DNA of 64,000 bases. It comes from Thermoproteota archaeon. GTDB taxonomy: Archaea > Korarchaeota > JAOZGF01 > JAOZFZ01. Below the pieces are notes generated by a model. The model was not told where the DNA came from, did no database searches, and was given only the letters and a program-made list of their open reading frames with translations. The DNA lies in the NCBI GenBank assembly GCA_027492035.1, contig JAOZFT010000004.1, positions 288,001 to 352,000 of the forward strand. Reading direction: 5' to 3'. Below are positions 21,815 to 60,082 of the stretch, piece after piece; the stretch's first letter is position 1, and each line of letters starts with the position of its first letter. A program made the position numbers and the translations under genes.

Positions 21815-22778
21815 ATAAAGGGATGGATGAGTGGCTTACAAAAACAAGATATGAAAAGCCAAATTTGTACAAAGGATGGAGCAGTGAAAAAGATGTACCC
21901 CAATTATTAAATAAAGGAATTGTTCCAGTTGATAAGCCTCCCTCAATGACTTCAACGGCTGTTGTGGAATGGGTTAAATCCCTCTTCCATGTATCTAAGG
22001 CAGGTCATTTAGGAACCCTAGACCCCTACATAAAGGGGAGGGAAATCCTAACGTTACAGGGGTCTTACCTGTAGCCCTCGGTAAAGCCTGTAAAGTTGCT
22101 GATTTATTGCTTAAAACAGAAAAGGAATATGTTGGAGTGATGAAGCTTCATCGAGATATTCCAGAAGAAAATGTACGTAATGTTTTTGAAGTGTTTAAAG
22201 GGGAAATATATCAGGTTCCCCCCTCCAGGGCGGCTGTGAAAAGGAGTTTGCGCGTAAGAAAAATTCATGAACTGAAACTTTTACAGAAAAAGGGTAAATT
22301 CGTTCTGTTTCAGGTGAACTGTCAATCAGGTACTTACGTAAGGAAACTCTGCGTCGATATCGGCAGGGTTTTGAAAGTAAGAGCTAACATGGTTAGTTTA
22401 CGCAGAATAAAAACTGGAACATTTCACGAAGATCAATCCTTCACTTTACCACAAATAACCCTCGCTTATTATTTGTGGAAAACTAGGGGGGTAGAGGAGC
22501 CGATAAGGGAAGTTGTTAAACCACTAGATTCAGTCCTTAACAATTTGTTACCTGCAATATTAATCAAAGACTCTGCAGTCGAACCTGTTAAGAACGGTTT
22601 TCCGTTAATGATCCCAGGAATCATAGCTTTATCCAGTAAGGTTCCGAGAGGAGGCATTGTCTCTATTCAAAAATTAAACGGGGAAATAATTGCAGTTGCA
22701 AAAACGGTTTTATCTTCTGAAGAAATTTACAAGAAGAAAAGGGGGGTTGCAGCGAAACCTATCAAAGTTCTTGTCTAA
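21811..22778 (+). CDS. cbf5: H/ACA pseudouridine synthase Cbf5, two exons (21811-22021 and 22045-22778)
   Basis: Removing 23 nt joins the two track ORFs and restores GHLGTLD-PNVTGVLP..KEYVG; GTYVRKLC and PUA domain in exon 2. Confidence 0.95.
22022..22044 (+). other. BHB intron in cbf5 mRNA (23 nt)
   Basis: Central helix CCCT/AGGG, bulges AG|A and AA|A, inner CCCC/GGGG, outer TTAGGA/TCCTAA. Confidence 0.93.
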
Positions 22779-22858
22779 AAAGAAATTTTAAAAACGTATA
22801 CCTTACCCTTATTTCTTAAAGGGTAAAATGTTTTTGCTGCTTAATTTGTTGAAAGATT

Positions 22859-22962
22859 GCCGGGGTACTCCAGCCAGGTAGGAGGCGGGCCTGGAGAAAT
22901 TTCTTTTAAACAAAAAGCCCGTGGCTCTTGGAGCCTCGTGGGTTCAAATCCCACCCCCGGCG
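22859..22962 (+). tRNA. tRNA-Ser(GGA) with 19-nt anticodon-loop intron (about 22897-22915)
   Basis: GCCGGGG/CCCCGGC acceptor, G73, long variable arm; body identical to tRNA-Ser(GCT) at 59998. Confidence 0.88.
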
Positions 22963-22966
22963 TCTC

Positions 22967-25517: not shown

Positions 25518-26184
25518 TTAATTTATAAATTCTTCCAATTTCTTCTGTCCCTTCTTATTCCTGATTTTTTCTATTGTTTTCCATGTTTTTCTGATGTGTT
25601 TACCGAATGCTTCTCTGTTTTTTAAAGTTTTTTCTAAAAAATTAATTGTTGTTTTATCTGAAGGGTATCCTGAGCCTATCTCACCCATTTCTTCTTTTAT
25701 CTTCTCCATTAGTTCATCCCTGAAAACTTTTGCGATTATTGAAGCTGCTGCAACTACTAAATATTTCTGTTCTGCTTTGTTTTCTGAATGTATCACAACT
25801 TTCCCTTTAATTTCTTTGTTTAAGTATTTACTTATTTTTAAAGTGAATCTTTCTGTTTTTCTGTCAGGTGAATCAACGTAAACTTCATCTGGTTTTGTTT
25901 CGTTGATTATTTCAGCTATTTTTTTGGCTTCGAGCTCATTTAAATTTTTTCTTTTATCTATCTCCTGCGCTGTTACTTTTCTAAATGTGTAGTCACATTT
26001 TTTTATTATTTCTGTGAACAACTCCCTCCTCTTCTTGGCCGTTAATTTTTTGGAATCTTTCACCCCTATTTCCTGCAAAAAATTGATTTGTTTAGCGTTA
26101 ACCTTTACCCCGCAAATTATCATGGGTCCTAAGACAGGTCCTTTAGGCGGTTTATCCTCTACCTGCTTCATCCACTCCTAATAT
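25518..26184 (-). CDS. rnhB: Ribonuclease HII, two exons (about 26184-26159 and 26142-25518)
   Basis: Exon 1 (I)LGVDEAG-R is in a different frame from the track ORF GPVLGPM..VKDSKKL..YVDS..VAAASIIAKV..GSGYPSD; removing 16 nt restores DEAGRGPV; start codon uncertain. Confidence 0.92.
26143..26158 (-). other. Putative BHB intron in rnhB mRNA (16 nt, AGGATAAACCGCCTAA)
   Basis: Central helix AGGU/GCCU, bulges AG|A and AA|A, inner GG/CC hairpin, outer C-G pair; contains in-frame TAA. Confidence 0.82.
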
Positions 26185-26212
26185 TTTTTTTGAGTTTTTT
26201 CCTTCTCTTACT

Positions 26213-27319
26213 TTAAATCACCTTTTTAACATATTCTTCTGCATAATCGACTATTACCCTTTTATAACCCTTAAGTTTACGGTCAAGTTCAGGGTCGCCC
26301 GTATCTACATGGAAGAAAGGAGTTTCAATTACTTTGCTTTTTGTTGCAACTAAAATTATGTTTTTAATCCCCACCTTCTTTATAACTTCAGGGCTTATTT
26401 GCTGGTTTCCTCTTCCGAAAATGAACCCTTGCTTACCCAATGGACTAACCACAATTTTGGCCTTTTTATCGTTTATTATTTTCAACAGCTCCTTTTCGTT
26501 TAGATCTAACCCTATAACTCTCTTCTTGTACATTGCATCCACCCCTAAAAATGTTTTAGGTTGGTTAAGCATTTTTGTTATTGTTGAAACAGTTGATCCA
26601 GGCCCTAAAATATAAACTGAGTCGTTCATGTTGTCTATAACCCATTTAGCTATTGAGATTTTATTTTCTTCGTCGCTGGGAAGCAAAGTCTTGGAATTTT
26701 GTACTCGGCCCTTTACCACAGGCACCTTTAAGTAACCCTTGATTTCAAGAACTAAACGGTCTTCTCGGAAAGCTTGTTCATTTACTTCTACAACCTCCCT
26801 CTCTTCAAACTCAGTTTTTCCATCCAGGAATTCACTGAATATTTTAAAGGCTGAATCAATGTTTAGAGCAAAAACCCCACTGTACATTTTCACTCCTGAA
26901 GGAACCCCTATCACGGGGACTTTTGCATCTACTGTTTCACATAGATCCACAGCGGTTCCATCCCCCCCGAAAAAAATAATTAATTCAACTTTTTCTTTTA
27001 ACATTTGTTCAGCTATTTTTTTTGTGTCTTCTCTGGTTGTTTTTTCTTTCCTTAAACCTAAGGGCTTTATTTCAATATTTACTTTCTTCGCTTCTTCTTC
27101 ACCCATATTTCCAGCTCCTGTTAACAATTCAAACTCTTCCTTTCTGTTTTTTATTTTTTCAAGGAACTTCACTGCTTTACTTGGTGTTACTGGTTTTGCT
27201 CCGAGTTTTAAAGCTTTTTTCAGGGTTTCTTCTCCATCAGTGCCCTTTAACCCAACTCTCCCCCCCATGCCGGCAATCGGGTTCACAATTAACCCCACTT
27301 TCCTTTTCATTTTTTTCAA
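26213..27319 (-). CDS. ATP-NAD kinase family protein
   Basis: NPIAGMGG, GGDGTA, PSGVKMYSGVFA, FGRGNQQ. Confidence 0.88.
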   Translation of the reverse strand: MKKMKRKVGLIVNPIAGMGGRVGLKGTDGEETLKKALKLGAKPVTPSKAVKFLEKIKNRKEEFELLTGAGNMGEEEAKKVNIEIKPLGLRKEKTTREDTKKIAEQMLKEKVELIIFFGGDGTAVDLCETVDAKVPVIGVPSGVKMYSGVFALNIDSAFKIFSEFLDGKTEFEEREVVEVNEQAFREDRLVLEIKGYLKVPVVKGRVQNSKTLLPSDEENKISIAKWVIDNMNDSVYILGPGSTVSTITKMLNQPKTFLGVDAMYKKRVIGLDLNEKELLKIINDKKAKIVVSPLGKQGFIFGRGNQQISPEVIKKVGIKNIILVATKSKVIETPFFHVDTGDPELDRKLKGYKRVIVDYAEEYVKKVI

Positions 27320-27947: not shown

Positions 27948-28068
27948 GGGCCCGTGGCTTAGCCTGGCTGGAGCGCTTGCCTTATAACGACGTTTATCGT
28001 CTTTTGAAGGCGGCGTTTTCCTTTCATGAGAAAGCAAGAGGTCGCGGGTTCGAATCCCGCCGGGCCCA
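27948..28068 (+). tRNA. tRNA-Ile(TAT) with 46-nt 37/38 intron (27987-28032)
   Basis: GGGCCCG acceptor and T arm match tRNA-Ile(GAT) at 42206; CTTGC-CT TAT A|..|A-GCAAG; helix CUUA/UGAG plus AA|A bulge. Confidence 0.85.
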
Positions 28069-35969: not shown

Positions 35970-36060
35970 GGGGCCGTGGGGTAGCTAGGTCTAGCCTTCG
36001 AGACTTGGGCTCTCGAGAGTGTTCATCCGAGAAACCCCGGTTCAAATCCGGGCGGCCCCA
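35970..36060 (+). tRNA. tRNA-Pro(TGG) with 16-nt variable-loop intron (36018-36033)
   Basis: GGGGCCG acceptor; CGAGA-CT TGG GC-TCTCG; helix CTCG/CGAG with AG|A and AA|A bulges. Confidence 0.9.
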
Positions 36061-36188
36061 CCTATCTTCTTTTTGTAACTCCTTTGTACTTATTAATGTA
36101 TTACCGCGCTTTCCTATGGATTTTTAAACTCTACAACACCCTTTTTTATTGTCTCCTTGAACCTTGTAACTTTTTAAAGGGGTTTTTG

Positions 36189-41848: not shown

Positions 41849-41969
41849 AAACTCCTTATTGAGTTAAAGTAAGCCTACAAAATCTAGCTGGAAAAAGTAC
41901 AGGAACCGTAAAATTTAACTTTCCACAACAAAACCTCTCGCAACCGAAATACGGTTTTAAGACTCTATG

Positions 41970-42052
41970 TGGACCGGGCGGGATTCGAACCCGCGTTCAC
42001 TGCCTCTTTCTTCTATGCGAAGGCAGCGTGTTTCCACCTGCACCACCGGCCC
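41970..42052 (-). tRNA. tRNA-Ala(CGC) with 10-nt 37/38 intron (42006-42015)
   Basis: G3:U70, CTGCC-TT CGC A|TAGAAGAAAG|A-GGCAG. Confidence 0.88.
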
Positions 42053-59997: not shown

Positions 59998-60082
59998 GCC
60001 GGGGTACTCCAGCCAGGTAGGAGGCGGGCCTGCTAAGCCCGTGGCTCTTGGAGCCTCGTGGGTTCAAATCCCACCCCCGGCG
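59998..60082 (+). tRNA. tRNA-Ser(GCT)
   Basis: CGGGC-CT GCT AA-GCCCG, long variable arm, G73. Confidence 0.95.

Follow-up and report, generated by a model that had tools for sequence, protein, structure and literature searches.

The window analysed here is a 64,000-nucleotide (nt) stretch of a Thermoproteota archaeon genome (GCA_027492035.1, contig JAOZFT010000004.1, positions 288,001 to 352,000), and it carries rnhB, the gene for RNase HII, on the minus strand. The intergenic region past the NAD-kinase gene (26213..27319) leads into the rnhB reading, which is interrupted inside the catalytic DEAGRGP motif by an insert of 16 nt. We conclude that positions 26158..26143 are very probably a near-minimal bulge-helix-bulge (BHB) intron within the rnhB coding sequence, spliced by the endonuclease EndA and the ligase RtcB. 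The features of the locus are as follows.

26159..26184, minus strand: rnhB exon 1, (I)LGV-DEAG plus the first two bases of the Arg codon, ending ...GGU AG
26161..26164, minus strand: 5' strand of the central 4-bp helix, AGGU (exon), with its partner GCCU in the intron at 26148-26145
26158..26160, minus strand: 5' bulge AGA, predicted cut between 26159 and 26158
26143..26158, minus strand: predicted BHB intron of 16 nt, made up of the third base of the 5' bulge, the inner hairpin, GCCU, and the first two bases of the 3' bulge
26142..26144, minus strand: 3' bulge AAA, predicted cut between 26143 and 26142
25518..26142, minus strand: rnhB exon 2, the last base of the Arg codon and GPVLGPM... to the stop; RNase_HII profile positions 8-198

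The minus strand of window positions 26130-26185 encodes DEAGR, then 16 nt, then GPVLGPM. This is what an earlier interpretation made from the letters of the window, hereafter the sequence-only reading, had given, and it proved correct to the base, including the stop codon and the frame shift within DEAGRGP. The exon-1 frame reads ...KKILGVDEAGRG and then meets an in-frame TAA within the insert, which also shifts the frame by +1. The downstream frame, GPVLGPMIICG..., runs for 207 codons to a stop at 25518. Deleting 26158..26143 in silico gives ...ILGVDEAGRGPVLGPM..., with DEAGRGPV regained, and the N-terminal D-E-A-G-R of RNase HII is in frame with exon 2 only once the 16 nt are removed. The open reading frame (ORF) called by the ORF finder (217 aa, 25518..26171) begins with an ATG that overlaps the codons for Asp and Glu, and it crosses the insert in the exon-2 frame, giving MKQVEDKPPKGPV... 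It matches Pfam RNase_HII (PF01351) at 1.6e-43 over profile positions 8-198 only. Because the match begins at position 8, the listed ORF lacks the catalytic Asp and Glu, as had been claimed. Exon 2 carries D90 and D142, which are invariant between this genome and its sister genus and which we take to be catalytic.

The insert and its flanks can be drawn as a compact BHB motif. The central helix AGGU/GCCU is paired at all four positions, one of them G.U, and is flanked on opposite strands by the 3-nt bulges AGA and AAA, so the proposed helix with its two bulges was described accurately. The inner hairpin is GG-AUAAA-CC, in which GG/CC closes a 5-nt loop. The elements follow one another as helix strand, bulge, inner hairpin, helix strand, and bulge, which is the orientation of the archaeal tRNA BHB motif. 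Archaeal BHB motifs are cut by EndA after the second bulge base on each strand. Applied to both bulges here, this rule yields ...GGU AG↓A GGA CCU (the arrow marks the join), in which base 26142 becomes the last base of the Arg codon. The predicted regeneration of DEAGRGPV thus holds in silico, and the motif is restored in the same way at all 39 interrupted loci described below.

Evidence from relatives begins with the class to which the genome belongs, which consists of three genomes: that of the window (G000), one from a sister genus that is the only other member of its family (G001), and a third (G002). Among 61 related genomes, 58 match Pfam RNase_HII. In 49 genomes besides G000 and G001 the match is full length, from profile position 1-2, and in seven it is partial or paralogous; a match that starts at position 8 is found only in G000 and G001. 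No rnhB was found in the G002 genome (71% complete). The rnhB of G001 has a 23-nt insert in the same Arg codon, with a different sequence, the same AGA and AAA bulges, and a 6-bp inner hairpin. Its exon 1 has an ATG start and reads MGIDEAGR. Pair 1 of the central helix changes from A-U in G000 to G-C in G001. The DEAGR codons of the two genomes differ only at synonymous third positions while the exon-2 proteins are 51% identical, which argues that exon 1 is under purifying selection. In both genomes cbf5 and rnhB lie on one contig, so the locus is syntenic and inherited.

We searched metagenome and species-representative contigs for further interrupted genes. An earlier metagenome scan with a single protein had given 363 pattern matches, none of which was confirmed. 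A search with the two-protein alignment returned 160 loci, and together with the relatives 191 loci were examined. A recognizable D-E-A-G...G-P-V junction is present in 181. The junction is intact in 142, carries 30 nt in 36 and 31 nt in one, and holds the 16-nt and 23-nt inserts in G000 and G001, respectively. These last four groups make up the 39 interrupted loci, and every insert is at the same AG↓A position.

Among 72 named genome rows with a protein, the insert is present in Promethearchaeota (11 of 18), Odinarchaeota (2 of 2), Hodarchaeota (1 of 1), and unlabelled archaea (2 of 6); it was not found in Helarchaeota (0 of 1), Hermodarchaeota (0 of 1), or other phyla (0 of 43). When 301 Asgard-phylum genomes, drawn evenly, were scanned with a DNA pattern for the interrupted junction, 43 matched and had inserts 29–31 nt long, and the reversed control matched none; the pattern was strict, which makes this count a lower bound. 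By these sequence matches the insert is not special to the lineage of the window and is widespread in Asgard archaea. Aligning rnhB from relatives, as had been proposed, therefore did return variable inserts (16, 23, and 29–31 nt) with a covarying BHB. The 31-nt insert lies at the same rnhB codon of a metagenome contig (L073:405-471) whose gene falls outside the Asgard clade and, in the tree, adjoins a 0.8-Mb genome of another family. A BHB-like form is the minimum-energy fold in L073, which may be a third lineage carrying the intron.

Pairing across the insert is conserved while its sequence changes. The alignment of the 30-nt class is ungapped and has 36 rows, of which 31 are distinct. The BHB pairing is formed at 91.9% in register, compared with 27–39% when the 3' partners are slid by one to three columns. 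Eight pairs have changes on both sides, a number reached by none of 500 shuffles. Two of the eight are in the exon-intron helix, where one position is occupied by U.G, U-A, C-G, and G-C. Adding G000, G001, and the 31-nt carrier brings in all length classes (34 distinct sequences), and pairing of the central and outer helices is then 96.0%, compared with 35–53% when slid. The central 4-bp helix is 94.9–95.2% paired across the family, and two of its four pairs have changed on both sides. The inner helix ranges from 2 bp in G000 through 6 bp in G001 to as many as 9 bp in Asgard inserts. RNAalifold adds an exon-exon outer helix formed by the Asp-Glu-Ala and Gly-Pro-Val codons. At three free synonymous sites in this outer helix, the base is compatible with pairing in 89–97% of the interrupted genes, 55–61% of 76 intact genes, and 71–86% of seven Asgard-labelled intact genes. 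This bias is suggestive and is confounded by relatedness.

The coding logic is equally constant. All 39 inserts bring a stop into the exon-1 frame, and at all 39 loci the canonical cut restores DEAG[R/K]G[P/S]V in silico. Two or fewer registers restore the frame and motif in 33 of the 39. At one locus, L070, the canonical register is the only one to give Arg, and the others give Ser. A canonical start is present 3–25 codons upstream in the exon-1 frame in 37 of 39. The interrupted Asgard genes (L037-L151) have a conserved extension of ~20 residues (MMKKNSLNSSK...) ahead of the usual RNase HII start. Together, the upstream starts and this extension argue that exon 1 is translated in that frame.

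A second insert of the same design is present in the window, in cbf5.

22022..22044, plus strand: cbf5 BHB insert of 23 nt, inside the catalytic Asp codon (G↓AU) of GTLD↓P; helix CCCU/AGGG; bulges AGA and AAA
Near locus position 1536-1600: cbf5 inserts of G001 (L197) and G002 (L198)

Its bulges are identical to those of the rnhB insert, as had been noticed, and its layout is the same. All three genomes of the class have a cbf5 insert at the same position, 23 nt long in G000 and 15 nt in both G001 and G002. Their bulges are AGA with AAA or AUA, and the helix covaries as CCCU/AGGG, CCUU/GAGG, and CCUU/AAGG. The inner helices are 2–5 bp, and three of the five introns of the class (cbf5 and rnhB together) have only two or three inner pairs. 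The presence of small, covarying inserts in cbf5 of all three genomes indicates that near-minimal BHB inserts are maintained in a second conserved gene. These hosts lie outside the crenarchaeal orders in which a cbf5 intron is documented.

The predicted splicing machinery is encoded in G000. EndA is a single protein of 378 aa (C9:442896-444032; L003:649-1785) with the domain order N-C-N-C. Its C-terminal unit matches crenarchaeal catalytic alpha subunits at 3.9e-35 to 6.3e-27 (2CV8, 3.9e-35; 3P1Z_B, 5.3e-34) and euryarchaeal two-unit enzymes at 2.4e-15 and weaker, and the N-terminal unit matches beta subunits. From these matches it looks like a fused beta-alpha enzyme. A segment of it, GHPIGIRKPKS, aligns with the Sulfolobus tokodaii alpha subunit in a region that we take to be the Crenarchaea-specific loop. 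Asgard archaea have been described as having an (alpha-beta)2 EndA with an L1 loop, and Korarchaea as having a lineage-specific fusion (PMC5829648). RtcB is matched at 5.5e-174. The intron mode of ARAGORN called introns in 24 of the 36 tRNA genes, 6–54 nt long and several at noncanonical positions; the program is not BHB-aware, so these calls are rough and some anticodon assignments unreliable. Examples of such calls in the window are listed below.

22858-22964: tRNA gene with intron (ARAGORN)
27948-28068: tRNA gene with intron (ARAGORN)
35970-36062: tRNA gene with intron (ARAGORN)
41969-42052: tRNA gene with intron (ARAGORN)

The first of these was missed by the default mode of ARAGORN and resembles the tRNA-Ser at 59998 plus an insert.

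From these comparisons a route to active RNase HII can be proposed. In the pre-mRNA, AGGU of the Ala-Gly exon codons would pair with GCCU of the intron, and the bulges AGA and AAA would flank this 4-bp helix. EndA would cut after the second base of each bulge and RtcB would join the exons, re-creating the Arg codon AG↓A and the catalytic DEAGRGPV in one frame. Because the join restores this motif, only spliced mRNA would give active RNase HII. Unspliced message would give either a short peptide ending in the intron or a protein started at the incidental ATG, which would lack the catalytic Asp and Glu. The proposal of the sequence-only reading, that a BHB intron is removed by the tRNA-splicing machinery and that RNase HII depends on splicing, is thus supported by the G001 insert, the 37 further loci, the covariation, the purifying selection on exon 1, the restoring cut at all 39 loci, the presence of EndA and RtcB, and the lack of a second rnhB in G000. 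Comparison across genomes settles the interpretation of the predicted motif as a BHB; that cleavage and ligation take place, and at exactly these positions, we infer from the sequences.

The following observations weigh against this interpretation. In a simulation, 2,387 of 400,000 random 16-mers (0.6%) had four of four central pairs and at least two inner pairs in one fixed register, and five registers restore the frame in G000. Taken alone, the predicted G000 motif is only weakly above chance; it stands far above chance once the comparative data are counted. The G000 sequence has another minimum-energy fold, the BHB scoring −0.6 kcal/mol compared with −10.4 for an alternative exon 1–exon 2 helix that cannot form in G001, and the fold z-scores for G000 (−0.6 to −1.2) are not significant. 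Archaeal BHB introns are expected to have an inner and an outer helix of about 2 bp or more each. The inner helix of G000 has 2 bp only, the shortest among the rnhB inserts. The outer helix beside the 3' bulge consists of one contiguous C-G pair followed by interrupted exon-exon pairs, which the D-E-A and G-P-V codons largely force, and it is weakened in G000 by a GAA codon in place of GAG. Across the family this outer helix is 96% paired, yet no pair in it has changed on both sides. The central helix of G001 is paired at three of four positions, the fourth being a G.A mismatch.

The start of exon 1 is a further point against it. G000 has the only complete locus of the 39 without an ATG, GTG, or TTG at least three codons before the Asp. 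No ATG was found in the exon-1 frame after a TGA 16 codons upstream. The candidates are a GTG at 26175-26173, directly before the Asp, and an ATA at 26184-26182, four codons before it. With no usual start upstream, exon 1 needs either this GTG or a noncanonical AUA, and one of the two would be the start codon. By eye, an A/T-rich TTTAAA box (window positions 26200-26216, minus strand) overlaps the NAD-kinase stop codon ~27–30 nt before these candidates, a spacing that would fit an rnhB promoter of its own and a very short leader.

These points bear on the alternative that survives best, in which the G000 copy is decaying or has changed function, so that the insert is an unspliceable remnant and either nothing or the MKQVEDKPPKGPV... 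protein is made. We consider it unlikely. It concerns this copy only, and the wider family is convincing. The lack of a canonical start at least three codons before the Asp, the 2-bp inner helix with its near-zero BHB energy and competing fold, the GAA that weakens the outer helix, and the uninterrupted 217-aa ORF would all be expected of such a copy. Yet exon 1 still reads an undamaged ILGVDEAGR, with only synonymous differences from G001 in DEAGR, and none of the four central pairs is lost. The read-through ORF lacks conservation: in G001 the corresponding frame contains a TGA and has no start codon. The cbf5 introns of the class are equally small, with two or three inner pairs, in a gene expected to be indispensable. 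An intact second rnhB, which the sequence-only reading had named as a finding that would speak for decay of this copy, was not found in G000, while 58 of 61 relatives keep an rnhB. The genome has one rnhB and a fragment at C21:121601-121777 (L002:1486-1653, minus strand), a 55-aa ORF with a weak RNase_HII C-terminal match (profile positions 140-198, 23 bits) and, when scanned alone, no Pfam match. Relatives in family f3 have an RNase_HII paralogue of ~240 aa that covers profile positions 1-150.

Programmed translational bypassing would also give DEAGRG-PV, in this case without splicing, by take-off at the GGA before the TAA and landing on the GGA 16 nt downstream. Its attraction is that G000 has identical GGA codons at the two sites, a stop right after the take-off codon, and then a small hairpin, a layout that resembles phage T4 gene 60. 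Identical codons at the needed spacing are present in only three of the 39 loci (L055, L102, and G000), and G001 and the 30-nt class mismatch. Bypassing also leaves the exact 3-4-3 geometry, and the covariation of the exon with the 3' end of the insert, unexplained. The GGA repeat in G000 arises because the inner helix begins with GG, as does exon 2. We regard bypassing as very improbable.

Still less credible is a split gene, in which a DEAGR peptide and a C-terminal protein started inside the insert assemble without splicing. An in-frame ATG, GTG, or TTG between the last stop and the Gly of GPV is present at 23 of the 39 loci, and many Asgard inserts end in ...YMLK↓GPV. The remaining 16 have no such start, and in nine of these the next ATG is 71–79 codons downstream. 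G001 has no start before the Met of GPM. Where an ATG is present, it sits in columns constrained by pairing. An assembly or sequencing artefact can be set aside almost entirely: G000 is a 42-contig metagenome-assembled genome (MAG), but inserts at the same codon occur in independent assemblies from many projects, with differing sequences and lengths and with compensatory changes. The AGGA...AGGA repeat of G000 was also considered as a target-site duplication left by a transposon, a reading rejected because the repeat shortens to 3 nt in G001 and, in most Asgard inserts, to 1 nt.

The sequence-only reading had also expected that other apparently frameshifted genes in this genome are spliced, an expectation that the genome scan did not bear out. 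When AGA/ANA bulges and an ORF filter were required, 189 structural matches yielded just two flagged genes, cbf5 and rnhB, but seven control bulge definitions flagged 0–6 out of 100–281. A scan that allowed any bulges was uninformative, as most of the 343 sites that it flagged among 3,336 are fusions of adjacent genes. Candidates with stronger hairpins (for example, C8:19988) failed a stricter filter. Further spliced genes in G000 are neither supported nor excluded by the scan.

We compared the placement of the host with that of the gene. SecY of G000 is 76% identical to that of G001, 63% to that of G002, and 46–49% to those of genomes that GTDB assigns to the same phylum. Identities to a Thermococci-labelled MAG, an Odinarchaeota MAG, and a Promethearchaeota MAG are 48%, 43%, and 36%, respectively. 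By this measure G000 does not look like an Asgard archaeon. A quick likelihood tree of rnhB has an Asgard clade (98 by Shimodaira–Hasegawa-like approximate likelihood ratio test) of 34 interrupted and nine intact rows. The nine intact genes are nested in this clade, which implies intron losses. G000 with G001, and the 31-nt carrier L073, are outside the clade in the free tree, in which Thermococcus rnhB groups with a genome that GTDB places in the same domain. Holding G000 and G001 with the Asgard clade changed the log likelihood by +18.4 (approximately unbiased test, P = 0.68), the constrained group having been named after the tree was seen. A single origin of the insert is neither shown nor rejected by these tests. 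The insert may have come by common descent, by transfer of an already interrupted gene, or by gain more than once at a predisposed site.

We offer a broader idea tentatively, as something possible but less than likely. The small BHB introns of cbf5 and rnhB may belong to an old or horizontally spreading class that settles in conserved housekeeping genes, at codons of catalytic motifs, so that half of the recognition helix comes from the exon. Such a class would have persisted across at least two or three deep archaeal lineages with different EndA architectures (this class, with a fused beta-alpha enzyme; Asgard archaea, with an (alpha-beta)2 enzyme; and the carrier L073). If this were true, splicing of mRNAs by the tRNA machinery would be general in archaeal gene expression, though under-annotated, and would extend to the prokaryotes most closely related to eukaryotes. 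The making of a genome-maintenance nuclease would also be coupled to EndA and RtcB activity.

Several other consequences would follow. With a second coding sequence as a target, splicing of mRNAs by the tRNA machinery would be more than a one-gene curiosity. The rnhB target is conserved, always at the same codon, over a range that reaches from a deep uncultured class to roughly one-seventh of the Asgard genomes sampled. The rnhB introns would extend BHB introns of mRNAs to other lineages and lie at the small end of the known size range. Gene callers will report such rnhB genes as N-terminally truncated, catalytically dead, or pseudogenes, and carrier genomes may be taken, wrongly, to lack RNase HII or to have an inactive one. 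Introns of 15–31 nt with natural compensatory variants are a substrate set for determining the minimal size of a BHB and for comparing non-tRNA recognition by fused beta-alpha and (alpha-beta)2 endonucleases. Both coding targets, cbf5 and rnhB, are interrupted inside catalytic motifs, which raises the question of why.

Several known systems resemble the proposed rnhB intron in part. One is phage T4 gene 60, in which ribosomes bypass a short untranslated gap in the coding sequence. G000 shares with it a short gap between identical GGA codons and a stop after the first. It differs in that the codon match is absent in 36 of the 39 rnhB members, in which the conserved feature is RNA pairing across the insert. 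Eukaryotic XBP1/HAC1 splicing removes a short nonspliceosomal intron with an endonuclease and an RtcB-type ligase, and the frame change decides which protein is made. The proposed rnhB route has the same elements, including the change of reading frame. The endonuclease of XBP1/HAC1 splicing is IRE1, which recognizes another RNA motif, and the process is stress-regulated. A role of RtcB in XBP-1 splicing has been reported (PMC8718801).

The archaeal tRNA introns of the hBHBh' form have the two 3-nt bulges and the 4-bp helix seen in rnhB, and their cut rule is the one applied above. The rnhB intron is also within the length range of 11–175 nt quoted for tRNA introns (PMC2738675). Its context is different, as it lies in an mRNA in which one central strand and the outer helix are built of codons and are constrained by the protein. 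Among archaeal mRNAs, HVO_1309 of Haloferax volcanii has a BHB intron of 46 nt in its 5' untranslated region, which was found as a circular RNA and cleaved in vitro (Schwarz et al. 2020, PMC7714728). Like the proposed rnhB intron, it is a BHB motif in an mRNA, and it is an EndA substrate; unlike it, it is in the leader and interrupts no reading frame.

A precedent within a coding region is documented in the cbf5 pre-mRNA intron of Aeropyrum, Sulfolobus, and other Desulfurococcales and Sulfolobales (Yokobori et al. 2009, PMC2738675; Yoshinari 2006, as cited in PMC10485636). A 2023 review counts cbf5 and HVO_1309 and expects more (PMC10485636). The view of cbf5 as the sole coding-region case on record is in agreement with PMC7714728 and PMC10485636. 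No paper linking RNase HII or rnhB to an intron or a BHB was found in open-access PMC and bioRxiv, and a term search of a 2026 preprint on Asgard tRNA introns gave no mention of mRNA, RNase H, or cbf5. The crenarchaeal cbf5 intron and the proposed rnhB intron are alike in being a small BHB, in the size range of tRNA introns, that interrupts a coding sequence at its most conserved catalytic motif. The former is removed by the tRNA splicing endonuclease and a ligase, the route proposed here for rnhB. It has been lost in some lineages (Desulfurococcales), as has the rnhB intron in the nine nested intact Asgard genes. The two differ in the gene and in the hosts, which for rnhB are a three-genome class and Asgard archaea, outside the Desulfurococcales and Sulfolobales. 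They also differ in the strictness of the motif, since the rnhB core is a strict 3-4-3 and the cbf5 motif is described in the papers as often relaxed. Splicing of the cbf5 intron has been shown experimentally, whereas the rnhB intron, 16 nt long in G000, is predicted from sequence. On this comparison, rnhB is most likely a second archaeal coding sequence with a BHB intron, in which the mechanism is a known one and the target gene is new.

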